NCBI GenBank assembly: GCA_043810925.1
Contig: JBDRNT010000154.1
Location: forward strand, 1 to 32,532
Origin: Candidatus Eiseniibacteriota bacterium
Lineage (GTDB): Bacteria > Arandabacterota > Arandabacteria > Arandabacterales > Arandabacteraceae
DNA length: 32,532 bases
Reading direction: 5' to 3'
The notes beneath the pieces are model-generated. The model made no database searches. It was not told the origin of the DNA and saw only the letters and a program-made list of their open reading frames with translations. Of this stretch, positions 2,787-29,470 are shown in pieces. The translations under genes and the position numbers were made by a program. Position 1 is the stretch's first letter, and each line of letters starts with the position of its first letter.

Positions 2787-2886
2787 CATGTACCTCCAAA
2801 CACGGTCCAACCGGCGGAACGGGCCACAGAAAGGCCAAGCAGTGGCATGACACGCCCTTTCGCAGTCCGTTTTCTCCAAAAAAAGA

Positions 2887-2915: not shown

Positions 2916-2971
2916 TCGGATAAAGCAAATATGGTTGTGAATTACCGAAAAGGAAAGGGGGTGTTTCAAGC

Positions 2972-3445: not shown

Positions 3446-3459
3446 TCGGTTTTTGTAAG

Positions 3460-4284
3460 CTATGGACGGGAGAGTGTTTGTTCGGCACTCTCCCGTATCC
3501 TTATTTTCTTCATGGTGAGCAGGGGGCCGTACATTCCCCAGACGCAGGCCCTGAACGCAGCATGGTCGGAAAAGTGCGCACTCCCGACGCGCTTGAGTCG
3601 GAATGGATCCGTCCCGGGTGGGTTGAGTCCGAACTCTACGCTTACGGCCCCTCTAAATCCTGCCTTCATCAATTGACCGATGGCCGTGTCGGTGTAGTCA
3701 CCGTAGGGGTAGGCCAGAAGATCCACTTGATGGTTGAGGTTGGTTTCGATCGCACTGCGGCTCTGCTCGAGTTCCTGCTCGATCTCCGGCGCGTCCAGAG
3801 CGGCGAGCGAGCGATGGTTGTGAGTATGGCTCTGGACATCAAAACCCGCCTCGAGCATTGCGCTGAGTTCGCTCCAGTCCATCAGAGGGGACGCGGGCAG
3901 CCCCGAGTCCATGCGCCATCCGGGGGTTTCACCGACATGGGCCGTCGGGACAAACACCGTCCCCGTGAATCCAAGCTCCTGCATCACAGGAAGTGCCTGC
4001 TCCTTGACACTTCTGAAGGCATCGTCAAAAGTGATGACCGCGACTCTGCCCGGAGAAAATCGCTTGGTACCACGATTGGCCAGGTAGTCCCTTAAGAGCA
4101 CCGTCTCGAATCCGAACTCCTTAAGGTATCTCATCTGCCAGGCGAACTCTCCGGGAGAGACCGATACCACGGAGTCACTGCTGTCAATGGAGTGATAGGT
4201 GAGGATGGGAGGGAGGGTCTTCCGCTTGATCTTCTCTCCGAATGCTCCCAGACATTTAAGTACATAACGCTCAAAACGGTTCAT
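3460..4284 (-). CDS. Polysaccharide deacetylase (CE4/NodB domain, IcaB-like)
   Basis: PILTYHS, ITFDDA, QSHTHNH and LAYPYG motifs. ATGA overlap with the upstream gene; no obvious signal peptide. Confidence 0.9.
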   Translation of the reverse strand: MNRFERYVLKCLGAFGEKIKRKTLPPILTYHSIDSSDSVVSVSPGEFAWQMRYLKEFGFETVLLRDYLANRGTKRFSPGRVAVITFDDAFRSVKEQALPVMQELGFTGTVFVPTAHVGETPGWRMDSGLPASPLMDWSELSAMLEAGFDVQSHTHNHRSLAALDAPEIEQELEQSRSAIETNLNHQVDLLAYPYGDYTDTAIGQLMKAGFRGAVSVEFGLNPPGTDPFRLKRVGSAHFSDHAAFRACVWGMYGPLLTMKKIRIRESAEQTLSRP

Positions 4285-5066
4285 CGGCTTAGTATGAGTC
4301 CCCTGTGCTTTCGATAGAAACGGGTGTAAGATCGAAAGTGCTCGACCGCCATTCTATTAAACGGGTTCCCCCTCGTGATCCCCTGAAGAAAGTGTATCCC
4401 GATGAAAGCGGGGTAACAGATTACGTCATAACCCGCCTTGATCGCTCTCGCGCAGTAGTCCGCATCCTCAAAACCGTAGAACATGCGCTCATCCAGAAGC
4501 CCGATCTCATCGATCACGCCTTTTCTTATAAGTTGAAAGGCTCCCTCGACCATGTCGACGCTTCTCGGTGCCTTTCGATCCCAATCCGCCAGGTGATGGT
4601 GCTTGAGGATCCGGCTGGTCTTGACGAGTCCGATATAAGACAACCTTCTCAGCAGAACGTGGACCGGTCTCGGGAAAGTCCTTGCCGATGGGTGAACGCA
4701 ACCGTCCTCGGCCATGAGCGTGCAGCCCGCTATCCCGACCTCTTGATGACTGTCCATGTAAGAGAGGAGGGATGGAAAGTCATCTGAAACGATCTCGACA
4801 TCCGCGTCTAATATGAGAACGTACCTCCCCCGGGCAATACGGATACCCTGGTTCCTGGCCCGGGCGACTCCCATGTTGCGCGGGTTCTCGATCAGGGTGA
4901 TCTCAGGGAACTCGCTTTTGATATGCTCACGCGTACCGTCGACGGAATTGTTGTCGATAACGATGACTTCGAAGTCGATCCCCGTCACCTTTTTGTATAG
5001 GGAGCGCAGACATCGCTCGAGGTGATGCCAGCAGTTGAAGGTGATAATGACTACTGAAACATCCAT
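4281..5066 (-). CDS. Glycosyltransferase family 2 (WbbL-like)
   Basis: MDVSVVIITFN, VIDNNSVDGT, ILDAD and GFEDAD. Start reassigned to ATG 5066, which overlaps the upstream stop (TGATG). Confidence 0.9.
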   Translation of the reverse strand: MDVSVVIITFNCWHHLERCLRSLYKKVTGIDFEVIVIDNNSVDGTREHIKSEFPEITLIENPRNMGVARARNQGIRIARGRYVLILDADVEIVSDDFPSLLSYMDSHQEVGIAGCTLMAEDGCVHPSARTFPRPVHVLLRRLSYIGLVKTSRILKHHHLADWDRKAPRSVDMVEGAFQLIRKGVIDEIGLLDERMFYGFEDADYCARAIKAGYDVICYPAFIGIHFLQGITRGNPFNRMAVEHFRSYTRFYRKHRGLILSR

Positions 5067-5710
5067 CAGGGTTCGCTTCCTCGCATTTTCGTGATGTGAC
5101 ACTTCCAGATCCCAAAGTGACGGATTCGCGTAATCTCCGCCACCGGATGCACCTCTCCGAGCCCCGTAATTCTGTAGAGCTTCTGGTAGAGCGGCCACTT
5201 CACGGAGTCCACACAGGCCATGATCTTCTGTCTCCCGTGCCGGTGGTGACAGTCGAGCGCAATCTTTGACGAGGCCGCCCTCAGAATGTTCTTGAGCTTG
5301 TATTCCGGATGGGTAAAAGCATCAAACGCGAAGCACTCGTCATCTTTGACCGGAATGGTTATCTTGAGATACGGATCGAAGAAATCATGGAAGGCCACCC
5401 ACTCGAAGTAGACGAGTTTCTCCCGGTCGAAGACCACGTACACGCGGTGCCCCGCCTTAAGCCACCGCCGCATCTCATCGAGATCTCTTCCACCGGCCAG
5501 TTCCGAAATAGCCTCAAGGTCCCGCTCTTCTCCCGGACGGAATGTGACCGGGACATCGGACGGTAGCCCTTCGGAACCGCTCCCGGCGAACCACTCGGAC
5601 TTTGCGTCATGAGTCGAGGCGGCGAAAACGTAGAGCAGCTGTCTTGTATGGACAAACCGCCTCAGCCTTCTCAGCCAGTATTCGGCAACTGCTCTCATAC
5701 GTCTGGTCAT
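5066..5710 (-). CDS. GNAT-fold acyltransferase-like protein
   Basis: FRPGEERDL and ECFAFDAFTHPEY match the GNAT motif A region, although the Gly loop is missing. Coupled to both neighbours. Confidence 0.6.
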   Translation of the reverse strand: MTRRMRAVAEYWLRRLRRFVHTRQLLYVFAASTHDAKSEWFAGSGSEGLPSDVPVTFRPGEERDLEAISELAGGRDLDEMRRWLKAGHRVYVVFDREKLVYFEWVAFHDFFDPYLKITIPVKDDECFAFDAFTHPEYKLKNILRAASSKIALDCHHRHGRQKIMACVDSVKWPLYQKLYRITGLGEVHPVAEITRIRHFGIWKCHITKMRGSEP

Positions 5711-6849
5711 CTATCGAGTCTCCGTCGCCGGGCGGCAAGCAGCCTCAGCGGGGCTATCCGCTGAAGGCACGGCTTGACCTTGTCAAACCAGATGTAAAAC
5801 CCGAGGGCCGACCTGCCCTTCCCGAAGAATGTGAATTCATAGTTGGTCCTGAAGAGATCTGTCCAGTGAGATTTGTATGCGTCCGCCCCTCTCAAGAGAT
5901 CGACCATGCTGAGGCCGTTCGCAAAGGCCTCCCTTACCACATGGTAGAGGACCATCTTGCCCGGAGAGTATCGATCCAGAGCCTGGTTATGACCATGCTG
6001 ATAGCAGTAAGCTCTTCCATTGTAACGGAACCCATAATGTATCCCGACAAAATCGCTGTCACTGTCCAATCTCAAGAACTCGAGCCACCCTCTTGACGCG
6101 AAACGCTTCCCCAGAATACTGAAAAACTCCCGGTGGGCCGGATTTTCAAGTATACTCTGTTTGCGCTTGTGAACCAATCGCTCAACGTGATGTCGGTACA
6201 GGTGGGGCAGGTTCTCCGCGATCTCTTCCGCTCCGATCCTTGTCAATGTCAATCCGCCGATCTCACCGTAGCGGTTCAGCAACCTCTTTATGTCACCTCT
6301 CATCTTGCGCTTGACCCGTCTGAACTGTTCCTCCCACGAGAGGCCCGCATCGACGGGAAGATACCGGCACGTGGCAATTGTCCGTTTCCTGCCTCGTATG
6401 CTTCTCTCCCGGGACAGAATCATGTTCAGGGCTTCGACATTGGGCGAGTCTTCAGACAACTCCGAAAGTCTTAAGAAAGGGGAGTGTTCCGTCTCGAAGA
6501 TGAACCGGATAAACTGCCCGAGCACTGCTTCCCGATCCTCGAGGATGATGAAGTCGTGATAATCAGCGTCGGGTGCACCTGCAAACTCGATACCCGCGGT
6601 CCGGCATCCCGGGATGAAGGAGCTGTGTCTCATCAGGGGGGCAAGACCGATGATGTCCTTGCCTCTCTTCGCAACAAGCAGCAAGGGATCGCGCTTGTCT
6701 CCGAACGCTTCCCACCAGCTCAGGAACCACTCGTGGGTCAGGTACGGGTTGTCGACCGCACTTCGGGCAAGCAGGCCGTTCCAGATCCCGCCGAGTTGCT
6801 TTAACCTGGGAAGATCGGATACGGCTTCTATTGTGATCTCCGGTGGCAA
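5707..6849 (-). CDS. GNAT family protein (Acetyltransf_6, CelD/BcsL-like)
   Basis: NPYLTHEWFLSWW, DADYHDFI, YSPGKMVL and DLLRGADAYKSHW signatures; TTG start. Confidence 0.85.
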   Translation of the reverse strand: MPPEITIEAVSDLPRLKQLGGIWNGLLARSAVDNPYLTHEWFLSWWEAFGDKRDPLLLVAKRGKDIIGLAPLMRHSSFIPGCRTAGIEFAGAPDADYHDFIILEDREAVLGQFIRFIFETEHSPFLRLSELSEDSPNVEALNMILSRERSIRGRKRTIATCRYLPVDAGLSWEEQFRRVKRKMRGDIKRLLNRYGEIGGLTLTRIGAEEIAENLPHLYRHHVERLVHKRKQSILENPAHREFFSILGKRFASRGWLEFLRLDSDSDFVGIHYGFRYNGRAYCYQHGHNQALDRYSPGKMVLYHVVREAFANGLSMVDLLRGADAYKSHWTDLFRTNYEFTFFGKGRSALGFYIWFDKVKPCLQRIAPLRLLAARRRRLDR

Positions 6850-6863
6850 GCCACAGGTCTCCT

Positions 6864-8531
6864 TTAACTCAGATATCCCAATCCCCGCAAGCGCTCGCGC
6901 AGCTCATTCTCATCTTCGGCGCTGAGTTGCGCCGATCTTGCCTGGGCTTTGTCGGTGGGAGCATACTCGGGCTCACGGTCGAGCGTAAACGAGTCCTCAA
7001 GTATATCCAGAGCGGCCCGGCCGTCGACATCGTCGGGGATGGGAAGTCCCATCAAGTAAAGAACGGTCGGACAGATATCGTAGACACTCAGGTGCCCCGC
7101 ATCACCTCGCTTGACAGGGCCTCCGTGCGCCACGAAGATCCCGTCCATTCTGTGGCATCCCCAGCCGAACCGTTTATCCGGCACCTCGAAGACACTGTCG
7201 GAAAGGAACATGTCCGTGCTGTACTCACAGTCTTTGATCGTTACCAGGATATCGGGCGCCCACTTGGTGAAAGGACCGGTGTAGTACTCTTCACGCTTCA
7301 CGACAGATGTGATGATAGGCTCGCCGCTGTCAGGATCCGTGAAACTCTTAAGTCTTTCGATAATCTCATCCCGCAAGTGCTCATACTGCCCGACGGGAAC
7401 GGTACCCAGCGGACTCCGGCCCTCAAGATTTATATAGATACCTGTTTGATCTGTGATCGCACTGACAAAGGCCCGCGTCCTTTTCCAATCCACACACCGG
7501 TAGAACTGGGTAAAGCGGTCCTCCAGGCCTCCAAGTCGCCGGAGAGTCCTGGCGTGGTCACCGGCCATGAGTTTTCGTCTCACCTTCCAACGGTCTGCGT
7601 ACGCCACCGCCTTCCTCAGACCCCGCCAGGATTTCTCCTTAAGGGAGGAGGTGAGATATCTGCTCCGCTTGAGTTTGAGATAGCCTTCTTCCTCAAGCCA
7701 TCTGTTCATGTGAACCTTCTTCGCCATCGCGCCGAAGCCATGGTCGGAGACGATGAGGAGGATGTCATCCCTGGTAAGACGCTCCTGAATCTCTCCGATC
7801 GTCCGATCGACATCCCGGTAGTACTCATGGATATCCGCTTCCACGGAAGGGTCCTTCTCCAGCCCCTCGGGATAGCCGCCCGGATCGAGATAATTCCAGA
7901 GAGCATGTTGAATCCGGTCGGTCCCGGTGAAGACGGTCATGAAGAAGTCCCAGGGCTTTTTTTCCATGAGGTAGAGAGCCGTCCTGCCTCGCTGCCGGTG
8001 GCAGTGTCGAAGGTCCGAGACAAGTTCCCGCGCCCTCCGAGGTCCGTAATGGGTCCATCTGACTGTAATAATGTAGTCACCGATTTCCTTCAGGATCTCC
8101 CCGGTGAGATCGCGCGGGTAGGTGAGCCCGCTCTCTACGCTCGGCGTCATAAGGCCGCTTACGACAAACCCGTTCACTTCCTGGGGCGGGTAGGATATGG
8201 GAACATTGATCACTCCCACCTTTCGATCGTGGTCGGACAGTATTTCCCAGAGCGTCTTGACCTGTATGTCCGCGGACGTGATGAGCCTCTGTCCGAGTCC
8301 GCCGGCTGAATTCTTAAGGAAATTGTATATGCCGTGCTTTCCCGGGTTTCTTCCTGTGGCTATCGAGACCCAGGCAGGGCCGGTGCTGGGCGGGAAGCAG
8401 GTGGTGAGCGGACCGCAAACCCCGCCGCTCATCAGGCGGCCAAGGTTCGGCATGATCCCGCGGTCGACCAAGGGATGGAGCAGGTCCCACGTTCCACCGT
8501 CCAGGCCGATCACGCAAACCCGGCGCATCAT
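6864..8531 (-). CDS. Alkaline phosphatase superfamily protein (NPP/phosphodiesterase type), paralog 1
   Basis: IGLDGGT, PPSTGPAW (Thr nucleophile), TDRIQH, VSDHGFG, CHRMDG and C-terminal ERLRGLGYL. Confidence 0.9.
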   Translation of the reverse strand: MMRRVCVIGLDGGTWDLLHPLVDRGIMPNLGRLMSGGVCGPLTTCFPPSTGPAWVSIATGRNPGKHGIYNFLKNSAGGLGQRLITSADIQVKTLWEILSDHDRKVGVINVPISYPPQEVNGFVVSGLMTPSVESGLTYPRDLTGEILKEIGDYIITVRWTHYGPRRARELVSDLRHCHRQRGRTALYLMEKKPWDFFMTVFTGTDRIQHALWNYLDPGGYPEGLEKDPSVEADIHEYYRDVDRTIGEIQERLTRDDILLIVSDHGFGAMAKKVHMNRWLEEEGYLKLKRSRYLTSSLKEKSWRGLRKAVAYADRWKVRRKLMAGDHARTLRRLGGLEDRFTQFYRCVDWKRTRAFVSAITDQTGIYINLEGRSPLGTVPVGQYEHLRDEIIERLKSFTDPDSGEPIITSVVKREEYYTGPFTKWAPDILVTIKDCEYSTDMFLSDSVFEVPDKRFGWGCHRMDGIFVAHGGPVKRGDAGHLSVYDICPTVLYLMGLPIPDDVDGRAALDILEDSFTLDREPEYAPTDKAQARSAQLSAEDENELRERLRGLGYLS

Positions 8532-10174
8532 GAGAGATAACCCAATGCCGAAAGCGAAGCCTTGATTTTCTCAAGCTCCTCCGGCGTGTAGACATCGTGC
8601 TCGACCAGCCGCCTGAACCGGGCAGCCGGCTCAAACGTCATCTCGTGGTCGGCCAGATGCTTCGCCTCGAAGATGGACTCGAGTACCCTTCCATCCATAT
8701 CATCCGGTATTCCAAGACCCATTTCGTAGAGTATGGTGGGCGTCATATCGATGATTTCTGCCCCGGTGATTGTTGAGCCCCGCTTCACTCCCGGTCCCCT
8801 GGCGATGAAGATCCCTTCGAGGCGATGATGGCCCGACCTGTTCGGCATGAAGAGCCGCCGGAAATAGAAGCTCCGGTTTAAGAGGTAGGAGAAGTTCCTG
8901 ATCTGGAAGAGTACATCGGGCGCCGTCTCCACATGAGGACCCGAATAGACCTCTTCCCTCCGGACGGCGATGTCGACGATCTTGTCCCCGGTCACGGGAT
9001 CACGCAGATCGTAGAGACGGGATATGATCCGGTCGCGGATTGCCTCATAGTCCTCATCCGTCTCCACGATGCCATGGCTCTCCCGGCCCTTTCTGTTGAC
9101 GTAGATCCCGAAGGAATCGAAGTAGGCAACCGTCTTGTCCCAGTCGACAACCGAGGGAGAGACTTTTCGCCGGAAGAGGGGTAACCTGACCTTCAGGCCC
9201 GCAATGGCATCCGGCAAGCGTTCTGCGAGTGCTCTCATGCCAAACCTGTTCAAGAGTCCGCGGACCGGCACCGGATGGATCGCAAAACTATAAACGTCCC
9301 TCCAGTGACCGGGTGATGGTGAAAGGAGATGGAGAAAACCGTTATCCAGAAGCCAGCGATTTGCGAAGAAGACCTTGTCGACCGCTCCAAAGCCGTGATC
9401 TGAAAGGACCACGACATGGGTTTCATCGTCGATCTCATCGAGGAGGGCTCCGACCATACGGTCGCTCAGCTCATAGGCCTCCGCAACGGAGCCGGAAAGC
9501 GACGAGGAACTGTCCAGCATCTCCCGCACCTCATTCCAGCAGAAATGCTGGATCCTGTCCGTCACACCGAAAACGATCATGGAGAGATCCCATTCATGAT
9601 TCCGGAGTAACTCCACGGCCGTCTTGAGGCGGTGCTCTTCGATGTCGAAGTAGTCCCTCAGCCACTCCTCCTTCTTGCGAGTCCCGATGTCCGTTAAGGG
9701 GTGAAAGTCCACCCGGTAACCCTCGCGGTCGATCTTCTCCTGGAGGTCCGGAGGGTGCACGAAGTGGCGGGAGTCATTCGGTGTCATCAGACCCGAGATA
9801 ACAATCCCGTTGATCGCGGGAGGAGGGTAGGTGAGGGGGATATTGATCAAGATCATCTTCTTGTTCTTGGTTGACAGGATATCCCACAGGGTCGGCACGG
9901 CGATGGAATTGTAACTGACAAGTTTGAGATCGCCGCCGGGCCCGCTCCCGGCATGATGTGCGAACTCGAATACGCCGTGCTTTGCGGGGTTCTTGCCCGT
10001 CATGAAGGATGTCCAGGCCGGAGGGGTGATCGGGGGGATGGTGGACATCAAGTTGCCGGATGTCCCACTGTCCATGAGCCGTGCCAGGTTGGGAAGCCTG
10101 CCCTCTTTAAGAAGCGGGTGGATGATATCGAATGTGGCTCCATCGAGTCCTATTACAAGCACTCTCCGAGACAT
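8528..10174 (-). CDS. Alkaline phosphatase superfamily protein (NPP/phosphodiesterase type), paralog 2
   Basis: IGLDGAT, STIPPITPPAW, TDRIQH, LSDHGFG, GHHRLEG and C-terminal LSALGYL. Confidence 0.9.
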   Translation of the reverse strand: MSRRVLVIGLDGATFDIIHPLLKEGRLPNLARLMDSGTSGNLMSTIPPITPPAWTSFMTGKNPAKHGVFEFAHHAGSGPGGDLKLVSYNSIAVPTLWDILSTKNKKMILINIPLTYPPPAINGIVISGLMTPNDSRHFVHPPDLQEKIDREGYRVDFHPLTDIGTRKKEEWLRDYFDIEEHRLKTAVELLRNHEWDLSMIVFGVTDRIQHFCWNEVREMLDSSSSLSGSVAEAYELSDRMVGALLDEIDDETHVVVLSDHGFGAVDKVFFANRWLLDNGFLHLLSPSPGHWRDVYSFAIHPVPVRGLLNRFGMRALAERLPDAIAGLKVRLPLFRRKVSPSVVDWDKTVAYFDSFGIYVNRKGRESHGIVETDEDYEAIRDRIISRLYDLRDPVTGDKIVDIAVRREEVYSGPHVETAPDVLFQIRNFSYLLNRSFYFRRLFMPNRSGHHRLEGIFIARGPGVKRGSTITGAEIIDMTPTILYEMGLGIPDDMDGRVLESIFEAKHLADHEMTFEPAARFRRLVEHDVYTPEELEKIKASLSALGYLS

Positions 10175-10203
10175 TGCTTCTCCCCTCTATAGCGGCAAAG
10201 CAC

Positions 10204-11346
10204 TCAACGTTGAATTTCGCGATAGATCTCCAGCGTCCGCCGGCCGATCGTCTCCCAGGAATATGCTTCCATTGTCTTTCTGGCCTCCGCGGCCATCGAC
10301 TCCCTCAGGGCCGGTTCCTCGAGCAGCACCAGCATCTTCCGGGCGAGCTCCTCAGCATCCGTTGGATCGGTCACTATGAGGCCGTTCTCCCCATCTCTTA
10401 AGATATCAACCGTACCCGTTCTCATGGAGGTTATTATTGGAAGCCCGCTTGACATGGCCTCGAGGTTCACGAGCGGGTACGCGTCATAGAAGCTCGGGAA
10501 AAGAAACGCGTCGGCGGCGGCGTAGTATGGTCTGGTATCAAGGGATGCTCCTGCGAAGATCACCTGCGCATCCACCCCCAGCTCCCTGGCGTAATCCTCG
10601 AATCGCACCTGGTCGACCTGGTCTTTGCCGACGACCAGCAGTCTGGCATGGGGCCGTTTGATCCGGGCCAGTGCTTCTATGGCAAAGGCAAGCCCCTTTC
10701 GCTTGAAGAAGTTTCCCACAAACAGAAAGGTGAAATCGGTTTCTGAAATCCCGTGCCGGCTCCGGGTGGGCAGCCTCAGCTCTTCGAGGCCAACCGGGTT
10801 GTATGCGGCAAGATCAACGCCGTTGGGAAGCAGTTCGACGGCGTCTTCGGGCACCTTGTAGTAGCTCAAGAGGAAATCGCGGATCTCTCTTGAGAGCGCG
10901 ATAACCTTCCTGTAGTGGCCGCGACGGTAGTTGTAGTCGGACATCGGATAGGAAAGCATGATTCTCAGCCTGTAAAGGAGCGGGACTTCTTTCCGGTGTG
11001 ACTTGCTGAGGGTCTTGATCAGGTTCATTCCGATTCGCGCAACTCCGTGGCAGGTCACGATCCCGTCATCAAAGCGGCACGGGGCGTGGAGGTGGGCGAC
11101 ATCGAACTTCTCCCGGCGAAGCAGCGCCCCGCTTCTTAAGAAGAAACTGAGGTTCCGGGTCTCGAAAGTGTATTTGACCATAGAAACGGGGTGAATCTCG
11201 TAGTCTCCATGGACGGCTTCACCGGCAGGAAGCACGATGTGAACTTCATGGCCCATCTGGTCTTTGTAGTACCTGGCCAGTTCACTGACGACCCTTCCGA
11301 CACCGCTTAAGGGGCTGAAGCTCCGGGTGACGAGGGCAATTCTCAT
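10204..11346 (-). CDS. Glycosyltransferase family 4
   Basis: MRIALV, LPNGVD, FVGNFFKRKG and FPSFYDAYPLVNLEAMSSGLP. Confidence 0.9.
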   Translation of the reverse strand: MRIALVTRSFSPLSGVGRVVSELARYYKDQMGHEVHIVLPAGEAVHGDYEIHPVSMVKYTFETRNLSFFLRSGALLRREKFDVAHLHAPCRFDDGIVTCHGVARIGMNLIKTLSKSHRKEVPLLYRLRIMLSYPMSDYNYRRGHYRKVIALSREIRDFLLSYYKVPEDAVELLPNGVDLAAYNPVGLEELRLPTRSRHGISETDFTFLFVGNFFKRKGLAFAIEALARIKRPHARLLVVGKDQVDQVRFEDYARELGVDAQVIFAGASLDTRPYYAAADAFLFPSFYDAYPLVNLEAMSSGLPIITSMRTGTVDILRDGENGLIVTDPTDAEELARKMLVLLEEPALRESMAAEARKTMEAYSWETIGRRTLEIYREIQR

Positions 11347-12218
11347 TACTGCGAATCCTCCCTGACTGCGATGACGAAGAGCTCATACTTCCGCTGAGAA
11401 ACCCGCTCCAGCCAGGACAATCCCCTGACAAGCGACTTCTCGATCTTTCTTCCCCGTGCCTTTACGAGTGGGATCGTCTTCTTCTCAAGCCGGTTGACCC
11501 TGAATCCTGCCTGCTTGAGGAGCCTCGTAATCGTTGCGGCTGAGAAATAGTACCGATGGTAGACATGATACAGCTTTCCGACAGGATAGTGAATCGCTCC
11601 ACCGCTCAGACGGTAGATCCAGTGGGCGACGTAACGCATCAGCGAGTCGGCATTCGGCGTGTCAAAGAGCAGGATTCCGTCGTCCTTGAGCACACGTCCG
11701 ATCTCAACAAGCTCTTCGAGGGGATCCTCAAAGTGCTCGACCGAATCCCAGAGTGTGATCACGTCGAAGAACCGGTCGGGGAACCGTGCATCCCGCAGGT
11801 GGCCGGTGAAGTACTCCCCATCAAAGTGCTTCTTCGCAAATTCGATGGCGAACTCGGAGACATCAACACCATAAGGCTTCCAGCCGTCGCGCCCGGCCAT
11901 CGCCGGAAAGATACCCATTGCGCAGCCCACGTCGAGGATCCGGCCCGGCTGCTTCAGGGAATTGATGATATCCAGGCCGTGTCTGAAATCCCTGATGGTC
12001 CCGTGTTCAACACCGCCCTCGGGATCGACCACGGAGTTTCGATAGTAGTAGTCGCTTCGCTCTTCATAGTAGGCCTGAGTGTAGCTATTAGCCGGGGACG
12101 AGGGGACGGCCGGACCACCGATAAAGACCAGTCCGCAGCGACGGCACTCCAGGACGTCCAGTGACGGCAGGTGGTACTTCCTGGTTATCTCCGTCGATTT
12201 GCACAGGCTACACAACAT
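11346..12218 (-). CDS. Class I SAM-dependent methyltransferase with N-terminal Zn-ribbon
   Basis: CSLC..CRRC at the N-terminus, ILDVGCAMG (motif I) and FDVITLWDSVEH. Confidence 0.9.
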   Translation of the reverse strand: MLCSLCKSTEITRKYHLPSLDVLECRRCGLVFIGGPAVPSSPANSYTQAYYEERSDYYYRNSVVDPEGGVEHGTIRDFRHGLDIINSLKQPGRILDVGCAMGIFPAMAGRDGWKPYGVDVSEFAIEFAKKHFDGEYFTGHLRDARFPDRFFDVITLWDSVEHFEDPLEELVEIGRVLKDDGILLFDTPNADSLMRYVAHWIYRLSGGAIHYPVGKLYHVYHRYYFSAATITRLLKQAGFRVNRLEKKTIPLVKARGRKIEKSLVRGLSWLERVSQRKYELFVIAVREDSQ

Positions 12219-12223
12219 CTGTT

Positions 12224-17380: not shown

Positions 17381-17387
17381 AACGTTG

Positions 17388-21435: not shown

Positions 21436-21451
21436 GGTACTAACCTCCCGG

Positions 21452-22114
21452 TCAATCGAGATTCCATTGCCTCATGATCGCCGGAGGGATCGGACAGGTC
21501 ATCTGGCTCATGATCACACCCACGAGTTCTCCATGAGCCTCCTCGACCTTCTTCTTCACAAAAAGGGCGGAGCTCTTACTCGTGTCGAGTCGAACCAGGA
21601 GTATCACCCCATCGACAACGGTCGTTATGAAGAGTGGGAGGGGGTGTGAATAAAGACATGCGGAGTCCACAATAACGAAGTCGAAGTGTGCCTTCGCATT
21701 TTCCATGAATCCGACCGTCTTGGCCCTGTCATACAGCTCAAGACCCGAGGGTTCAGTGACTCCAAGCGAGAGCAAATTCGGTTGGGCCGGCTGGATCCCG
21801 AGGAATTGATCACCGGTGCTCAGAGATTCCCTGTAATCCTGGTCCTGCTCGAGACGCCACTTTTGAAGGTCCTTTGAGTCCGCGATCAAGAGTGTCCTTT
21901 TGCCCTCCTGTGCGAGCGCATAAGCAAGCACTGCGGCGACAGGACTCTTCTTCTGCAGAGGGCTTGCGCCCGTCATCAGGAAGGCCTTCTTCTTGGAGAC
22001 TTCAGACAAGCGCACGAAGTTGACTGCCGTCCGTTTCAAGGAAGCAGAGAACTCCGGGTCGTTGAACAAGTCAGGAACCGTTTTAACTCTGTTGTTGTTA
22101 CCCAGAAATATCAT
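21452..22114 (-). CDS. Wzc C-terminal/CapB-like BY-kinase homolog, apparently degenerate
   Basis: LAYALAQEGKRTLLI, FDFVIVDS and VDGVILLV are present. Walker A reads TGASPLQKKS and there is no C-terminal Tyr cluster. Confidence 0.7.
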   Translation of the reverse strand: MIFLGNNNRVKTVPDLFNDPEFSASLKRTAVNFVRLSEVSKKKAFLMTGASPLQKKSPVAAVLAYALAQEGKRTLLIADSKDLQKWRLEQDQDYRESLSTGDQFLGIQPAQPNLLSLGVTEPSGLELYDRAKTVGFMENAKAHFDFVIVDSACLYSHPLPLFITTVVDGVILLVRLDTSKSSALFVKKKVEEAHGELVGVIMSQMTCPIPPAIMRQWNLD

Positions 22115-23670
22115 TATACACCGTCCGCGGGAGGGATCTCCCCGATAACGGGGACACCCAGCACTTGTTCGATCTCCTGCCTTCTTCGGAAGCTATCATT
22201 CCAGTATTCGACGAACAGCGCATAGCCGATTCCTATGACTGCGCCAAAGAACAGGCTGACCACGAAATGGATCATTGACTTGGGCCAGTCGGGGTTCCGG
22301 AGAGGAGAGACATGGGCTCTTTCTATGACTCTAAGCTTATTATCATCAGTGCTCATATTGGACAGGACATTGAGCTCCTCCAGCCTGGCTCTCAGGCCTC
22401 GATCCATGACCTCATAGACCGCAACCTGGTTGCTGAGTGAGGCGAGCTCCATCTCTACTGCGGGAAGTTCCTGAAGTGCGCTCTCGCTCTCTCTGATCGT
22501 TCCGGCCAGGGCCGCCAGCCTGTCATCCGCCGTGGTGACATCGGTCTCAAGTTCGATCGAGCGATTCAAAAGCCGGTTATACGCGGACTCGGAGGATCTT
22601 GCACCACCCCTGGCAATTCTCTGGTTCTCCTCGCTCAGGAGTCTCTTGAGTCTTTCAATCTCGGCTTCCAACCGGATGACATCAGGGTGCTTTCTTGTCT
22701 TCTCTGTCAGGGCCGACGCAAGCGAGATTTCCGCCCTGCTGAGCTCGGACTGCATCTGCTGGATCGCGGGGTTATCCGAGGCCAACGGTGATGACGCTAC
22801 CGAGGGATCCCGCTTCTCAAGCTGGTTCTGGGTCTCCTCAAGCAACGCGCTCTGGATCTCCTTACCGCTCTTGGCCTGGAGATACTGGAGCCGCAAGTCC
22901 TCAATCTTCTGGATCTTCTGTTTCTTTTCCTCCTGAAGATCGCCCACCACGTTCTCTTCGAGGAACTGTCTTAACGCTACCCGGGCCTGCAGGAGCTTCT
23001 CTTCGGTCGACTCAAGCTCCTGACGAGTGCATTCATATGCAATCTGAGACTCCGACCGGGACAACTCGAGGGTCTTCTCCTGTAACAGATCCGCCATCCT
23101 GTTGGCGATATCCGTTGCGAGCTGAGGCGTCTGGCCTCGAATGGTCAGGTTGATCACCTGGGTCTGCACCTCGACCTCGATGTCCTCAGCCTTGTCGATC
23201 AGATCGTCAGCGGCCTCGTCAACCCAGTCGCGCTCCGGTGCCCTCAGAACCCTCATCGCCTGGAGTATCAGGAAGGGGCTTCTGAAGACGTCAATCAGAC
23301 CCTTCTTGAGGATGTCGCGCGGCTTATTCGGCTCTGTCTTTCGTTGTTGGAGCCGCTTGTCGAGTTCGAATTCACTCACAATCTGGTAAGCCATGTTTCG
23401 TCCGGTCAGAAGGGCCGCAAGGTTGTGGGCCTGAACCTCGGGAGAAGTGGGCGGACCGGGGGTGGAGAGCTCGGGAACACTTGTCAGCTGTCTCTTGGGA
23501 TTGGCCTCCACGAGGATGAGAGTCGTTGCCTCCCACCTCGGTGTTATCAAGTAGGTGAAGAACATCACGAAGAAAACGGTGGCCGCAAACAGCCAGATGA
23601 TGGCGCGTCTTCTTCTGAAAACGGCGTAGAAGAGATTGAAGAGCGTATCTTCTTTGGTAGACTCAGTCAA
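22114..23670 (-). CDS. Polysaccharide co-polymerase (Wzz/GumC, Wzc N-terminal part)
   Basis: Two TM helices flanking a long coiled coil; TPRWEATTLI, KHPDV and EQVLGVPVIGEIP. Confidence 0.9.
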   Translation of the reverse strand: MTESTKEDTLFNLFYAVFRRRRAIIWLFAATVFFVMFFTYLITPRWEATTLILVEANPKRQLTSVPELSTPGPPTSPEVQAHNLAALLTGRNMAYQIVSEFELDKRLQQRKTEPNKPRDILKKGLIDVFRSPFLILQAMRVLRAPERDWVDEAADDLIDKAEDIEVEVQTQVINLTIRGQTPQLATDIANRMADLLQEKTLELSRSESQIAYECTRQELESTEEKLLQARVALRQFLEENVVGDLQEEKKQKIQKIEDLRLQYLQAKSGKEIQSALLEETQNQLEKRDPSVASSPLASDNPAIQQMQSELSRAEISLASALTEKTRKHPDVIRLEAEIERLKRLLSEENQRIARGGARSSESAYNRLLNRSIELETDVTTADDRLAALAGTIRESESALQELPAVEMELASLSNQVAVYEVMDRGLRARLEELNVLSNMSTDDNKLRVIERAHVSPLRNPDWPKSMIHFVVSLFFGAVIGIGYALFVEYWNDSFRRRQEIEQVLGVPVIGEIPPADGV

Positions 23671-23685
23671 CTTTTCATCTCCCTC

Positions 23686-24930
23686 TTAGGCAAATCCTCT
23701 GAGCAGGACAACCGCATTAGCCCCGCCGAACCCGAATGAATTCGACATGGCGACACGGATCTGACCTTGCCTGCCACGATTTGGAACGAAGTCAAGATCG
23801 CATTCCGGATCCGGGATCTCGTAATTGATGGTAGGCGGCAGAAACTGGTTCTTGACCGCCATGACGGTTGTTATGATTTCCACGGCCCCGGCGGCTCCGA
23901 GGAGGTGCCCGATCATCGACTTGGTCGAGCTGACCGGGATCGATTTCGCGCGTTTGCCGAAGACGTTCTTGATTGCCTCGGTCTCCCCCTTGTCATTTGC
24001 CTGAGTAGCCGTGCCGTGTGCGTTTATATAGTCCACCTCGTCGACGGAGACGCCTCCGTCGGCAAGAGCTCCTTCGATCGCGTCGGTCTCACCCTTAACA
24101 TCGGGAAAAGTCAGATGATAAGCATCCGAATTCGCATAGTACCCGGCAATCTCCGCATAGACCGGTGCAGACCGGGCAGCCGCCGTATCCAGGCTCTCCA
24201 GAATCATCGCCCCTGATCCTTCACCCAACACCGGCCCGTCCCTGTCTTTGCTGAAAGGCCGTACCGATCTCTCGGGGTCATCGTTTCTGGTGGAAAGCAC
24301 CCGGAGTTTACACCACCCACAGAGCATGCCGGGGGTGATGCAGGCCTCCGACGCCCCTGCGATAGCGGCATCCACATAGCCGTGTTTTATGAGGCGATAG
24401 GCTTCCCCCACGGCTATGGCGCCGGAGGAGCAAGTGTTACTGATAGTGTAATTGATGCCGGTCGCTCCCGTCTCGATCGCGATGTTGGTGGACGCAGCCG
24501 CGCCCATTGCCCTGGGAAGGGTCATTGCGTCAATTGCCTTGCAGCCTTTTGAGAAGAAGACCTCATACTGCTCTTCACTTGTCGTGACTCCGGCCTCACT
24601 CGATCCCCAGATCACCGCGACGCGCTTCCTGCCGGTCTCATCAAGCGGGAGTTTGCTCTCATTTACGGCTTCTGAGGCAGCAACCAGTGCGAACTGGCTG
24701 AAACGGTCCGTTGCATAGATCTTCTGAGGCGTGAGGTGCGCAGCGGGGTCGAAGTCCTTCACCTGAGCCGCGATCCTGGTCCTGTAGGGAGAGGCGTCGA
24801 AGCTGTCGATCGCACTCACACAGGACTTGCCGTGAGAGATTGAATCCCAGAAGGCCTCTTTGCCGATGCCTGCCGGAGCCACCACTCCCATACCTGTTAT
24901 GACTACACGTCTTTTCAGATCACTATTCAT
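23686..24930 (-). CDS. fabF: Beta-ketoacyl-ACP synthase II-like ketosynthase 2
   Basis: RRVVITGMG, SNTCSSG (Cys), NAHGTAT (His), GHLLGAAG (His) and SNSFGFGG. Likely start is ATG 24930. Confidence 0.9.
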   Translation of the reverse strand: MNSDLKRRVVITGMGVVAPAGIGKEAFWDSISHGKSCVSAIDSFDASPYRTRIAAQVKDFDPAAHLTPQKIYATDRFSQFALVAASEAVNESKLPLDETGRKRVAVIWGSSEAGVTTSEEQYEVFFSKGCKAIDAMTLPRAMGAAASTNIAIETGATGINYTISNTCSSGAIAVGEAYRLIKHGYVDAAIAGASEACITPGMLCGWCKLRVLSTRNDDPERSVRPFSKDRDGPVLGEGSGAMILESLDTAAARSAPVYAEIAGYYANSDAYHLTFPDVKGETDAIEGALADGGVSVDEVDYINAHGTATQANDKGETEAIKNVFGKRAKSIPVSSTKSMIGHLLGAAGAVEIITTVMAVKNQFLPPTINYEIPDPECDLDFVPNRGRQGQIRVAMSNSFGFGGANAVVLLRGFA

Positions 24931-26176
24931 CGTCCCGCCATTTTCTTGCAATCAGAATAGCATTTGTACCGCCAAAACCGAAGGAGTTAGACATCGCTAT
25001 ATCGACCGCGGCTTCACGCCCGATGTTGGGCACATAGTCGAGATCGCACTCGGGATCGGCAACCTCGTAATTGATGGTAGGCGGTATGAAGCTCCGCTCC
25101 ATGGCCAGGAGACATGTTATCAACTCTATCGCGCCGGATGCTCCAAGAGGATGCCCGACCATTGACTTGGTCGAACTGATCGGGATCGAGTAGGCCTTGT
25201 TTCCAAAAACCTGCTTGATTGCCGCCGTCTCCACCTTGTCGTTGGCCAGAGTCGCCGTACCATGGGCGTTTATGTAATCGATCTCGCCCGGATCGATCCC
25301 CGCATCCGTCAGAGCTCCCCGCATGGCCTCGACTTCCGTGTCCAGATTGGGGTAGGTGAGATGGAACGCATCGCTGCTTGAACCGTAGCCGATGATCTCG
25401 CCCAGGATCCTCGCGGATCGGCCGAGGGCATGTTCAAGACTTTCGAGAATCACTATGCCCGCCCCTTCCCCCATAACGAGACCGTCCCGGTTCTTGCTGA
25501 ACGGCTTGATCGCCTTCTTGGGGTCGTCATTCTTGGTTGACATCGCCCGCAGCTTGTCCCAGGCGCAGAAATGGACAACCGAGATCGGCGCTTCCGCCCC
25601 ACCGGTGACCATCAAGTCCGCATAGCCGTTCTTTATCTTCTGATAGGACTCGCCGATCGCATGTGTCCCGGCAGCACAGGCCGTGGACAGGCAATAGCTT
25701 ATGCCCTTGAATCCGAACTGCATGCAGATATAGCTCGAACCGGCGTTGGGCATCACGAGCGCAACCGACAGGGGATTGAGATGCCGGTAACCTCTGACAT
25801 AGAACCCTTCCGCCGCCTCTTCGTGGGAGATGATTCCTCCGCCACCGGAACCGAGGAGTACACCGGTCTTGGCCTTGATATCGTCATCGACGTCAAGACC
25901 GCTGTCTTCAATCGCCATCGCAGTAGCCCCAATGGCCATCTGTGTAAAACGGTCCATCCGCTGGGATACCCGTGGTTCGATGAAGTCGTCGGGGTTAAAA
26001 TCTTCAACCGTGGCTGCGATCCTGGTACGGAAGGATTCGGTGTCGAACCGGGTGAGTTTTCTAACACCCGACACTCCCTTTGAAGCTGCCTGCCAGTAGG
26101 TTTCCTTACCTGAACCGATAGGCGTTATCAGCCCCATACCGGTTACGACTACCCTTCTTTGGGCCCCGTTCTTCAT
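24923..26176 (-). CDS. fabF: Beta-ketoacyl-ACP synthase II-like ketosynthase 1
   Basis: RRVVVTGMG, STACAAG (Cys), NAHGTAT, GHPLGASG and SNSFGFGG. Likely start is ATG 26176. Confidence 0.9.
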   Translation of the reverse strand: MKNGAQRRVVVTGMGLITPIGSGKETYWQAASKGVSGVRKLTRFDTESFRTRIAATVEDFNPDDFIEPRVSQRMDRFTQMAIGATAMAIEDSGLDVDDDIKAKTGVLLGSGGGGIISHEEAAEGFYVRGYRHLNPLSVALVMPNAGSSYICMQFGFKGISYCLSTACAAGTHAIGESYQKIKNGYADLMVTGGAEAPISVVHFCAWDKLRAMSTKNDDPKKAIKPFSKNRDGLVMGEGAGIVILESLEHALGRSARILGEIIGYGSSSDAFHLTYPNLDTEVEAMRGALTDAGIDPGEIDYINAHGTATLANDKVETAAIKQVFGNKAYSIPISSTKSMVGHPLGASGAIELITCLLAMERSFIPPTINYEVADPECDLDYVPNIGREAAVDIAMSNSFGFGGTNAILIARKWRDDE

Positions 26177-26192
26177 AGATCCAAGATTTCCT

Positions 26193-26438
26193 CTATTTCG
26201 TGTGTTTTCGGACCACCTCAACTGCTGTAACAAAGGAAGTGATCTTGAGCGCCTCTTCGTCGGGAATGTCGATCTCGAACTCCTGTTCGAGAGCGGCCAG
26301 GATTCCGAGGGCAGCCAGCGAGTCCCCGCCCAGGTCGGCGATCGTCGAGGTCCTCTTCACGGCGGCATCGTCGACCTGTAACACCCGCATGATCACATTC
26401 TTGACTTTCGCTTCAATCTCATCGAATTTCTCTTCCAT
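26193..26438 (-). CDS. acpP: Acyl carrier protein
   Basis: DLGGDSL phosphopantetheine site, LEQEFEIDIPDEEA; AGGAG RBS before ATG 26438. Confidence 0.9.
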   Translation of the reverse strand: MEEKFDEIEAKVKNVIMRVLQVDDAAVKRTSTIADLGGDSLAALGILAALEQEFEIDIPDEEALKITSFVTAVEVVRKHTK

Positions 26439-26465
26439 CAATTCTCCTTCTGGTGTTCTTTCCAC

Positions 26466-27206: not shown

Positions 27207-27219
27207 GTTGCTGATTCCT

Positions 27220-27990: not shown

Positions 27991-28045
27991 GCTACTGCCT
28001 CCGATCATGGATATCCCCCCTCATCTGTTAAATCGGGCAATTCGG

Positions 28046-29470
28046 TTACATCCCTTGAGCTTTAAGCACTGCCGGAATAGTCCTCAAGAGGATCTTTATG
28101 TCGTTGGAGAGTTTCCAGTTATCGATATATTCCATGTCCATCCTTATCCAGTCCTCAAACGAGATCCCATTTCTCCCATTCACCTGCCATGTGCAGGTGA
28201 TTCCGGGAAGAATACTGAAACGTCTGCGCTGCCAATCCTGATTGAAACCATTGTAGTCGCGTAGCGGCAGCGGTCTCGGCCCCACAAGGCTCATGTCGCC
28301 TTTGAGAACGTTAAAGAGCTGGGGTAGCTCATCGATGCTCCACCTGCGCAGCCACCTGCCGACACTTATGATTCTGGGATCGTTTCGTATCTTAAAGACC
28401 GGGCCGTCCATTTCGTTGCGGTCTTCGAGATCCAGCTGCAACTGCTCGGCATCCTCTACCATGGTCCTGAACTTATGGAGATAGAAGACCCGCCTGTTGC
28501 GTCCCATGCGTTTCTGGTTGAAAAGCACCGGGCCCGGCGATGAGAACTTGATGGCAAGGACCGCGATCAGCATCAGAGGGGCCGTCATGACCACAATCAG
28601 AAAAGCCAGCGCCCTGTCGATCACCTGTTTCGCCAGATAGGACCAGCCGTCCCGGGGTCCGGAGGTGATCATCACGGTGGGAAGGTGCTCGAACTCCTCT
28701 GAGTGGGACTCGGCGAAGCTGGTGTCGAAAAACCGCCACAGGAACCGGATCGGGATGCCGTTCTCTTCAGCCTTTTGGACGATTCTATTGATCTCCTCAT
28801 AATGCGACTTGATCGGCAAAGCGATGAACACCTCATCCACTATCCGCTCCTGTATTATCCGGGGAAAGTCATCCAGTCTTCCGAGGAACTCCACGTTATC
28901 CCGGGGAACGTGAATCTTGTTGTCGATGAAGCCGATCAAGCGAAACCCGAGCTCCTTCTTCTCCTCAATCATGTCCGCAAACTCATAGGCTCTCTGGTTG
29001 GTCCCCGCGATCAGGATCAGCCGCAGGTTCCTGCCGTGAAGCCGGATTTTCCTGAGGATGTGCCTCAGGGCGGCGCGAAACGAGAGCGTCAAGACACTAC
29101 TCGAAAGCCAGAAAGGAAAAACGAAATAGGGTCCGAAGACCCTGAACCGGAAAGCAAGGCCCGCAAGCAGCATGAACAGACTCCCGACTGTTGTGGCCTT
29201 GAGAATATCCAGCCATTCACGACCGGCACCCCCGAGTCTTCGCGAGCGGTATAGATGAAACCGGTGAAAGACCAGATACCATGCGAGTGCCATGACCAGG
29301 AAAAGTGCGAGATTGATCACCTTGATACGCATGGCCAGGAACTCGGTCATGGGGATCCCTGCGCCATAGATGGCATTGAAAGAGGAGGCAGCAAGAAGAG
29401 ATACAATGAGAATCGTTATATCAGACAGCTTATAAAGATTCAGAAGGAGCTTTCGGCGAAATGAAATCAT
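28046..29470 (-). CDS. Priming polyprenyl-phosphate hexose-1-phosphate transferase (WcaJ-like)
   Basis: Four N-terminal TM helices, a Rossmann-like middle domain, KFRTM, SIDELPQLFNVLKGDMSLVGPRP and PGITCTWQV. Confidence 0.93.
   Translation of the reverse strand: MISFRRKLLLNLYKLSDITILIVSLLAASSFNAIYGAGIPMTEFLAMRIKVINLALFLVMALAWYLVFHRFHLYRSRRLGGAGREWLDILKATTVGSLFMLLAGLAFRFRVFGPYFVFPFWLSSSVLTLSFRAALRHILRKIRLHGRNLRLILIAGTNQRAYEFADMIEEKKELGFRLIGFIDNKIHVPRDNVEFLGRLDDFPRIIQERIVDEVFIALPIKSHYEEINRIVQKAEENGIPIRFLWRFFDTSFAESHSEEFEHLPTVMITSGPRDGWSYLAKQVIDRALAFLIVVMTAPLMLIAVLAIKFSSPGPVLFNQKRMGRNRRVFYLHKFRTMVEDAEQLQLDLEDRNEMDGPVFKIRNDPRIISVGRWLRRWSIDELPQLFNVLKGDMSLVGPRPLPLRDYNGFNQDWQRRRFSILPGITCTWQVNGRNGISFEDWIRMDMEYIDNWKLSNDIKILLRTIPAVLKAQGM

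Follow-up and report, generated by a model that had tools for sequence, protein, structure and literature searches.

We have analysed contig JBDRNT010000154.1 (C154) of the metagenome-assembled genome (MAG) of Candidatus Eiseniibacteriota bacterium, a genome of 3.85 Mb in 185 contigs that is 91.7% complete; the whole contig, 32,532 nt, is referred to below as the window. On its minus strand the ORF caller places 23 open reading frames (ORFs) running from position 29470 down to 3460, and together they are an operon for a Wzx/Wzy-type pathway for an exported heteropolysaccharide, equipped with its own fatty-acid-type cassette. An earlier, sequence-only reading of this DNA had described a single coupled operon of 23 genes, and this is borne out: with the starts given by the ORF caller, 15 of the 22 junctions overlap or abut and the other seven are gapped by 5-37 nt, and the two big overlaps (-109 and -133) fall to about 0 if internal Met starts, as read from the sequence, are adopted for the first GT4 and the second GT2 glycosyltransferase genes. 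Pfam was run on 27 ORFs of the window and assigned a family to 20 of the 23 operon proteins, the exceptions being those of 220, 435 and 214 aa; NCBIfam scores were judged against the curated cut-offs, and hydrophobic segments come from a Kyte-Doolittle scan and not from a SignalP-type prediction. These family models recover the acyl carrier protein (ACP), the two ketosynthases, the FabG and the methyltransferase that the earlier reading had listed.

A dedicated fabG-acp-KS1-KS2 cassette

Between the wza and wzz genes of the operon lies a cassette of fabG, acp and two ketosynthase (KS) genes, KS1 and KS2, with gaps of 13, 0, -41, -29 and 15 nt at the successive junctions. These fab genes are a dedicated second set and not the genes of housekeeping fatty acid synthesis. 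Three proteins of the genome exceed the cut-off of the FabF model, two of them encoded in the window and one (642 bits) on contig C69, where the order plsX-fabH-fabD-fabG-acpP-fabF-rnc, each over its curated cut-off, is that of E. coli; the existence of this canonical cluster makes the window genes extra copies, and removes the concern, raised by the sequence-only reading itself, that they might be the sole or the housekeeping ones. The window FabG scores 307.7 bits on TIGR01830 (cut-off 297.75), and on the acetoacetyl-coenzyme A (CoA) reductase model it reaches 277.5 bits versus 240.8 for the housekeeping FabG. The ACP is under the cut-off on all nine of the NCBIfam ACP models that it matches (best 66.8 bits versus 106); the housekeeping AcpP on C69 scores 115.4 bits versus a cut-off of 71.

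Both ketosynthases exceed the cut-off of TIGR03150 (493.75 bits), KS1 with 532 and KS2 with 498.6 bits. We considered whether one of them might be an inactive chain-length factor and reject this, since the Cys-His-His triad is intact in both; with the catalytic Lys also kept, neither is a dead partner of chain-length-factor type. KS1 shares 49% identity with KS2, and the housekeeping FabF is 47% identical to KS1 and 44% to KS2. At the position of Ile108 of E. coli FabF, which we take to be an acyl-pocket residue limiting chain length, six of six ordinary FabFs have Ile (within G-x-G-I-G-G), KS1 has Gly (2/2 sequences) and the KS2 clade has Glu or Gln (23/23, that is, KS2 and its 22 closest relatives); the neighbouring Phe-Phe and Gly-Phe pocket segments are likewise altered in the alignment of the window ketosynthases. 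We built a FastTree phylogeny of 33 ketosynthase sequences, only six of them ordinary FabFs, with E. coli FabF as an arbitrary root; it supports the KS2 clade at 0.992 and makes KS1 its sister (support 0.966). In a collection of 5.8 billion proteins this rare clade comprises about 22 protein clusters at 56-90% identity, beyond which lies a plateau of ordinary FabFs at 48-53%.

As to what the cassette makes, we lean towards an acyl product that is short and hydroxylated, chain length being the weakest inference in our analysis. We do so because the operon supplies a reductase and, among its proteins, no dehydratase or enoyl reductase by Pfam or NCBIfam, because the KS2 pocket carries a polar residue, because the window FabG outscores the housekeeping FabG on the acetoacetyl-CoA reductase model, and because a published polysaccharide cassette with the same four functions, discussed below, has been assigned to a 3,5-dihydroxyhexanoyl group.

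Two GNAT-fold proteins and a CE4 deacetylase

No operon protein falls into the hexapeptide-repeat, PlsC, LpxA/D, MBOAT or acyltransferase_3 families of Pfam, and the only acyltransferase folds in the operon are those of a 380-aa Acetyltransf_6 protein and of the 214-aa protein. These are the two GNATs of the sequence-only reading, the second of which is seen only by structure. The 380-aa protein is FemAB-like, with no NCBIfam match at 1e-5 and no PDB sequence match at E ≤ 1. Near its C-terminus stand four consecutive Arg residues, a feature reminiscent of the C-terminal, Arg-containing extension with which HfsK is described as binding the membrane and c-di-GMP (PMC5362036).

Even at E ≤ 5, Pfam offers no family for the 214-aa protein. 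Its AlphaFold2 model (pLDDT 92.5) matches 219 PDB chains at E ≤ 0.001, and all of those listed with a named function are GNAT-fold acyl- or aminoacyl-transferases, with VipF and a clostridial glucosamine N-acetyltransferase at the top; as modelled, then, the protein has a GNAT fold that is visible only structurally. An exhaustive phmmer search returned 100 relatives at E ≤ 0.001, only eight of them reaching 1e-10. Pfam was run on 22 of the 100 (the best 15 or so and seven picked for length), finding Acetyltransf_1 in 15 and fusions in five, one each with PP-binding, Polysacc_deac_1, methyltransferase, FemAB_like/Acetyltransf_6 and GT2 domains. These fusion partners elsewhere are functions encoded around the 214-aa gene in the window: the CE4 domain of one fusion is 32% identical to the window CE4 (E 5e-20), and the carrier domain of another has a serine-helix motif in common with the window ACP. 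Among the structural neighbours in the ESM Atlas, two of nine rows are clusters of GNAT joined to PP-binding (63% and 94% of members with PP-binding). Judged from their domain content, fusions to ACP and to CE4 would fit a route of deacetylation followed by acylation from an ACP-borne donor.

The canonical CoA pyrophosphate loop of GNATs is R/Q-x-x-G-x-G/A. Distant relatives of the 214-aa protein keep R-x-x-G-x-G/A, and the protein itself and five close homologues have K/R-L-K/Q-N-I/L-L; a loop without the usual glycines may be compatible with a donor other than acyl-CoA, and would suggest nothing beyond that. A predicted complex of the 214-aa GNAT with the ACP scored 0.01 and 0.06 against a mark of 0.32, which gives no answer and is used neither way.

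The CE4 protein retains the FDD and H-x-x-x-H (HTHNH) motifs. It matches the IcaB, PgaB and HfsH models weakly, all under cut-off, and with 39.3 bits versus 400 on the HfsH model it appears not to be an HfsH equivalog. The scan reveals no N-terminal hydrophobic segment, in agreement with the earlier remark that an obvious signal peptide is lacking, and a cytoplasmic site of action, like that of NodB and HfsH, is probable for the enzyme. The same scan finds no hydrophobic segments in the three alkaline-phosphatase (AP)-superfamily proteins of the operon (AP1-AP3), the GNATs, the methyltransferase or the radical SAM protein; since CE4 and the other tailoring proteins all lack them, tailoring would precede flipping.

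Export machinery, distribution and neighbouring genes

Table 1. The 23 genes of the operon in window coordinates, with the evidence for each assignment
Feature	Coordinates	Strand	Evidence
Priming polyprenyl glycosylphosphotransferase, 474 aa	28046..29470	-	Bac_transf 218 bits, CoA_binding_3; 4 hydrophobic segments
Short Wza/OPX outer-membrane export lipoprotein, 262 aa	27220..28008	-	Poly_export, SLBB; hydrophobic N-terminal segment then Cys
Dedicated 3-oxoacyl-ACP reductase (FabG paralogue), 246 aa	26466..27206	-	TIGR01830, adh_short
Dedicated ACP, 90 aa, DSL serine motif	26193..26465	-	PP-binding 47.7 bits
KS1, FabF-type ketosynthase paralogue, 436 aa (ORF caller)	24923..26233	-	TIGR03150, ketoacyl-synt
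KS2, FabF-type ketosynthase paralogue, 421 aa	23686..24951	-	TIGR03150, ketoacyl-synt
Wzz/PCP-type chain-length determinant, 518 aa, 2 transmembrane segments	22114..23670	-	Wzz 30.6 bits; hydrophobic segment at each end
Apparently degenerate BY-kinase-like protein, 220 aa	21452..22114	-	TIGR01007 weak match
MurJ/MOP-family flippase paralogue, 530 aa	19843..21435	-	MurJ 271.5 bits; TIGR01695 283.7 bits
GT4 glycosyltransferase	18692..19951	-	Glycos_transf_1, Glyco_transf_4
Lipoprotein, glycoside-hydrolase-like TIM-barrel fold, 435 aa	17388..18695	-	Structural neighbours; N-terminal hydrophobic segment
Wzy_C-domain polymerase or ligase, 506 aa, about 11 transmembrane segments	15905..17425	-	Wzy_C 83.6 bits
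Cytoplasmic AP-superfamily protein AP1	14232..15908	-	Phosphodiest 160 bits; no hydrophobic segment
GT2 glycosyltransferase	13297..14235	-	Glycos_transf_2 90 bits
Radical SAM/SPASM protein	12224..13300	-	Radical_SAM, SPASM
Class I SAM methyltransferase, N-terminal Cys-x2-Cys pair	11346..12218	-	Methyltransf_23 94.6 bits
GT4 glycosyltransferase	10204..11346	-	Glycos_transf_1 126.6 bits
Cytoplasmic AP-superfamily protein AP2	8528..10174	-	Phosphodiest 129.9 bits
Cytoplasmic AP-superfamily protein AP3	6864..8531	-	Phosphodiest 153.8 bits
FemAB/HfsK-like GNAT, 380 aa, Arg-rich C-terminus	5707..6849	-	Acetyltransf_6 105 bits
Small orphan GNAT-fold protein, 214 aa, candidate acyl-ACP-dependent N-acyltransferase	5066..5710	-	Structure
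GT2 glycosyltransferase, true start probably near 5066	4281..5198	-	Glycos_transf_2 111 bits from residue 48
Probably cytoplasmic CE4 polysaccharide deacetylase, 274 aa	3460..4284	-	Polysacc_deac_1 93.7 bits

The sequence-only reading had seen a full Wza/Wzc/Wzy/flippase pathway. Such a pathway is recognisable in the operon, but what was called Wzc is two proteins, one Wzz-like and the other kinase-like and apparently degenerate. The operon encodes an initiating glycosylphosphotransferase (399 bits on TIGR03025, EPS_sugtrans, cut-off 295.55), a flippase and a Wzy-type polymerase, for the last of which polymerase and ligase are not distinguishable (Table 1). The Wza-type lipoprotein is under cut-off on four of four NCBIfam export models, and the Wzz-like protein scores 135 bits on TIGR03007, below the cut-off of 278.85. 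The kinase-like protein, which has no Pfam family, scores 45.5 bits versus a cut-off of 108 on TIGR01007, and inspection of its sequence found no clear Walker A motif (G-x4-GK[ST]) or C-terminal Tyr cluster; although it appears degenerate, it is 94% conserved in the congener described below, the top value of the operon. A better-scoring MurJ-family copy elsewhere in the genome (434.6 bits, G000:C172:3438-4961) means that the window gene is probably the repeat-unit flippase and not the lipid II flippase, and a second, full-length Wzc-like gene (783-aa frame, G000:C171:12477-13511) points to at least one further polysaccharide locus.

Several genes went unremarked in the earlier reading, namely those for the radical SAM/SPASM protein, the three cytoplasmic AP-superfamily proteins and the hydrolase-like lipoprotein. 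The lipoprotein has a weak GH5 match (E 0.16), and its structural neighbours in the Atlas are 'beta-agarase family' clusters (TM 0.76-0.79). AP1-AP3 are three paralogues of about 550 aa each, without signal or membrane segment, that keep NPP-like Asp/Thr/Asp-His motifs; AP1 has only remote PDB relatives (NPP5 and PhnA, E about 1e-4), and a role in transfer of a phospho-substituent or in a pyrophosphatase step is possible. We considered the radical SAM protein as a formylglycine maturase of the AP-like proteins and reject this on reading their motif, which is of the NPP-like Thr type and not the Cys/Ser type of sulfatases. The radical SAM/SPASM protein is under cut-off on all 25 NCBIfam maturase models shown of the 40 matched, and its gene sits between those for a GT2 glycosyltransferase and the methyltransferase. 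Both GT4 proteins match TIGR04157 weakly, a glycosyltransferase model whose name, glyco_rSAM_CFB, alludes to radical SAM.

Conservation was assessed in 18 species genomes of the small phylum to which the MAG belongs, among which the window genome is G000 and its congener G001. In the congener, 19 of the 23 genes and the beta-helix gene upstream are collinear at 80-94% aa identity, the contig ending inside the third AP gene. Farther away, for the orthologues of KS2 (77%), Wzz (63%) and the 214-aa GNAT (61%) the longest contig recorded is in each case 40,952 nt long and comes from the same two sources, and from these agreeing lengths we infer that one more distant metagenome organism carries the linked locus. 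A KS2 search of genome contigs gave 88 relatives, of which 80 loci were kept, and only the congener contig exceeded 51% identity; aligning the KS2 clade with metagenome contigs matched at least 597 stretches, the best 80 of which are all at the level of ordinary FabFs (≤51%). When all window proteins were compared by tblastn with the 160 loci, homologues of the polysaccharide operon were found only in the congener locus, and one other locus had AP-like matches only. Taxon labels among the members of the KS2-clade clusters come from two MAGs only, a Nitrospirota and a Pseudomonadota bacterium, and 401 sampled Gemmatimonadota genomes, with four candidates scored in each, contained no KS2-clade match at E ≤ 1e-132.

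Upstream of the operon, at a distance of 188 nt, lies a minus-strand gene (29659-32241) whose 860-aa product looks secreted and combines a right-handed beta-helix with PMP repeats and, at the C-terminus, a FlgD_ig-like domain. The gene has a syntenic counterpart in the congener (81%), and its product may be a lyase, epimerase or surface protein forming part of the locus. Converging on the 3' end of the operon is a plus-strand gene (345-2786) for a membrane protein of 813 aa whose N-terminal part is PMT_2 (glycosyltransferase-C-like), with about nine hydrophobic segments and a long TPR array. The region from 2787 to 3500, with about 670 nt between this TPR gene and the CE4 gene, holds only two overlapping ORFs without a family (2590-3231 on the minus strand and 2972-3445 on the plus strand). 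A hairpin at 3466-3496 has a perfect 13-bp stem, is followed on the plus strand by a T-rich tail and overlaps the final codons of the CE4 gene; promoter and terminator scans of both operon ends gave nothing exceeding shuffled expectation.

A proposed route, its precedents and its alternatives

Starting from what is observed (the gene set, its tight coupling, the extra fabG-acp-KS1-KS2 cassette and the small GNAT fold), we propose that the cassette makes a special, possibly short and hydroxylated, acyl-ACP, and that a GNAT transfers the acyl group to an amine freed by CE4 on the repeat unit of the polymer; we think this about equally likely to prove right or wrong. Housekeeping FabD would place malonate on the dedicated ACP, after which KS1, KS2 and the dedicated FabG would perform one or two rounds of condensation and reduction, yielding a short- to medium-length 3-hydroxy- or 3,5-dihydroxy-acyl-ACP; for anything longer, housekeeping FabZ and FabI would have to accept the dedicated ACP. 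In the cytoplasm, CE4 would take the N-acetyl group off an N-acetylhexosamine (HexNAc) of the undecaprenyl-diphosphate-linked repeat unit, and the 214-aa GNAT (most likely), possibly together with the FemAB-like GNAT, would move the acyl group from ACP to the freed amine. The methyltransferase would add a methyl group, and the MurJ-family flippase, the Wzy_C protein, the Wzz/kinase-like pair and the short Wza would flip, polymerise and export the product. A broader idea, which we advance tentatively and consider doubtful, is that the 214-aa protein stands for a so far unrecognised family of GNAT N-acyltransferases dependent on acyl-ACP, elsewhere fused to ACP, CE4, methyltransferase, FemAB-like or GT2 domains, and that together with CE4 it may constitute a general 'swap the acetyl' pathway on lipid-linked HexNAc, distinct from the nucleotide-sugar route of O-antigens and drawing its acyl group from a mini KS-KS-ketoreductase (KR)-ACP synthase.

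A number of our observations weigh against the proposed route. The families of the operon include no KAS III starter enzyme, malonyl transferase, dehydratase, thioesterase or aminotransferase, which makes both chain initiation and chain length guesses, and the chain-length reading of the Ile108 position comes from the FabF literature. VipF and the clostridial glucosamine N-acetyltransferase, the top structural matches of the 214-aa protein, use acetyl-CoA. The fusion proteins are remote from it (E 4e-5 to 8e-4), and with seven of the 22 scanned relatives chosen for length the frequency of fusions is not a rate. Deacetylation by CE4 alone, giving a cationic adhesive polymer as in poly-N-acetylglucosamine or holdfast, would explain the CE4 gene without re-acylation. 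Lastly, the linkage of the genes, on whose conservation in relatives the sequence-only reading made its idea depend, is kept in the congener and apparently on the one distant contig but is otherwise narrow: a KS2-type gene was found in two of the 18 phylum genomes (E ≤ 1e-128) and in none of the other 16, and since no close Wzz orthologue occurs in them outside G000 and G001 either (best identity 26%), it is the whole locus, and not the cassette alone, that is genus-specific among the 18.

The sequence-only reading knew of no characterised cluster with this gene set, and in this it overlooked two partial precedents. In the O-polysaccharide locus of Flavobacterium psychrophilum, wfpC and wfpE encode different 3-ketoacyl-ACP synthases (KAS), wfpD an O-polysaccharide-specific ACP, wfpF a reductase and wfpG a PglD homologue predicted to move 3,5-dihydroxyhexanoyl onto UDP-Qui2NAc4N (PMC6519341), and a preprint by implication assigns WfpC to the KAS III family (10.64898/2026.09.14.751350). 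Like the window operon, this locus is Wzy-type and combines two KAS with an ACP and a KR; neither a dehydratase nor an enoyl reductase is named among wfpC-wfpG, and transfer from acyl-ACP to a sugar amine is predicted there. The likeness is one of published description, and the function in F. psychrophilum is itself a prediction. The systems differ in that WfpC is described as a KAS III enzyme whereas KS1 and KS2 are both FabF-type, in that the acyltransferase is a PglD homologue there and the candidates in the window are GNAT-fold only, and in that the amine comes there from a PglE/PglF 4-amino-sugar route on a nucleotide sugar and in the window likely from CE4. Indeed, Pfam and NCBIfam place none of the 23 operon proteins in a KAS III, hexapeptide-repeat acyltransferase, aminotransferase or 4,6-dehydratase family. 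A 3,5-dihydroxyhexanoyl group is also mentioned in an abstract on Vibrio cholerae O100 (PMC12024518).

The other precedent is the holdfast of Caulobacter crescentus, where HfsK has been proposed to re-acylate the amines that HfsH exposes (PMC5362036). The holdfast resembles the window in having a Wzx/Wzy-type adhesin pathway with a deacetylase that acts on lipid-linked precursors. HfsK is described as a FemX-like tandem GNAT, of which the window has a possible counterpart in its Acetyltransf_6 protein with the Arg-rich C-terminus, alongside CE4; a dedicated ACP/KS/KR cassette is present in the window and none is described there for the holdfast. Our literature search, which left most subscription journals outside, found no further case of ACP and ketosynthase in Wzy, O-antigen or exopolysaccharide (EPS) clusters. 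The system extends ideas already published in these partial precedents and is not a new kind.

In the Nod system a CE4 enzyme frees an amine, a dedicated ACP, ketosynthase and FabG-like reductase provide a special N-linked acyl group, and there is a SAM methyltransferase. The window is alike in functional logic only, a SAM methyltransferase occurring in both, and actual kinship with the Nod system finds no support. NodA (PF02474) is found neither among the 27 window ORFs nor in the 91.7%-complete genome, where control genomes give 0 too; the window GT2s score 31.3 and 26.7 bits versus a cut-off of 550 on the NodC model TIGR04242, so that no NodC-type synthase is seen, and the window FabG scores 220 bits versus 436 on the NodG model. 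The superfamilies of NodB, NodF and NodE are present, the NodB-, NodE- and NodF-specific models are not among the matches, and the methyltransferase matches only generic class I methyltransferase families. Further differences lie in the number of ketosynthases (two in the window, one in the Nod system), in the acceptor (as proposed, a lipid-linked repeat unit of an exported polymer versus a free chitooligosaccharide) and in the full Wzx/Wzy/Wza machinery of the window. The earlier idea of deacetylation and acylation on exported repeat units is partly supported, and is a reasonable reading that the domain fusions strengthen; the analogy with Nod factors is functional only. A further comparison is with XrtA/PEP-CTERM EPS loci, whose NCBIfam models (TIGR030xx) are the best or near-best matches of the window export protein, chain-length determinant, kinase, GT4 (stp2/stp3) and O-ligase-like protein, all under their curated cut-offs. 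Such loci typically pair a FemAB-like GNAT with CE4. Among the 27 window ORFs neither an exosortase nor a PEP-CTERM protein is found; the exosortase search did not extend to the rest of the genome.

The same genes can be read in other ways. The cassette might, with housekeeping FabZ and FabI, build a long special acyl chain that is N-linked to the deacetylated sugars, giving an amphiphilic, emulsan-like or Nod-factor-like lipoglycan. KS1 and KS2 are elongating enzymes of FabF type over the FabF cut-off, the Gly in place of Ile108 in KS1 could widen rather than shrink the pocket, systems of the NodFE and AcpXL type borrow housekeeping enzymes, and tandem ketosynthases after an ACP resemble the mycobacterial acpM-kasA-kasB genes of long-chain extension. 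We nevertheless judge a long chain unlikely, given an operon without dehydratase, enoyl reductase or thioesterase, the polar residue, Glu or Gln, that all 23 members of the KS2 clade carry where FabF has Ile108, the stronger match of the dedicated FabG (277.5 versus 240.8 bits) to the acetoacetyl-CoA reductase model, and the fact that the only published polysaccharide locus we found with two KAS, an ACP and a KR is predicted to make a C6 dihydroxyacyl group. The amphiphilic glycan of the sequence-only reading needs a long chain, and nothing shows one; the missing dehydratase and enoyl reductase and the residue at the Ile108 position in KS2 speak against it.

It is also conceivable, though in our view improbable, that tailoring and cassette serve separate ends, with CE4 producing a cationic adhesive polymer, the GNATs using acetyl-CoA or aminoacyl-tRNA, and the cassette supplying something else co-expressed with the polymer, perhaps a membrane lipid, perhaps an anchor or primer of lipid nature at its reducing end. 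Genes resembling those of polyketide synthases serve lipid carriers in capsule loci (rkpA, wcbR), about 18 kb separate the cassette from the GNAT/CE4 end of the operon, deacetylation of the PgaB/IcaB/HfsH type needs no re-acylation and the best NCBIfam matches of CE4 are, below cut-off, those very models, and FemX-type enzymes are described as using aminoacyl-tRNA (PMC5362036). However, the cassette, set between wza and wzz in translational coupling, accompanies the locus, relatives of the 214-aa GNAT are fused to ACP and CE4 domains, and the operon has no lipid-type acyltransferase (PlsC, LpxA/D, MBOAT or acyltransferase_3) to use the acyl-ACP. That the fab genes are redundant duplicates of the housekeeping set without a special product seems to us very improbable indeed. 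Their order, fabG-acp-fabF, does mirror the housekeeping order, and FabG, KS1 and KS2 do pass the curated FabG and FabF cut-offs, but identity to the housekeeping FabF is only 47% for KS1 and 44% for KS2, the pocket residues of both differ systematically from those of FabF, the ACP is under all ACP cut-offs, the KS2 clade is an old separate lineage with members 56-90% identical in other metagenomes, and the GC of the operon equals that of the genome (0.561 and 0.563), which argues against a recent sloppy insertion.

Unusual N-acyl groups on surface polysaccharides shape their antigenicity, adhesion and physical properties, and the enzymes that install them are mostly unknown; the acyl cassette of F. 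psychrophilum is only predicted, and the acyl group that HfsK adds in Caulobacter is unknown. Although it comes from an uncultured MAG in a narrow lineage, the operon described here unites a dedicated acyl-ACP factory, a probably cytoplasmic deacetylase and two GNAT-fold transferases in one unit, and domain fusions in distant relatives tie the same functions together independently. If it is true that the small GNAT draws its acyl group from ACP, it would represent a testable enzyme family and a route to engineered acylated glycans.

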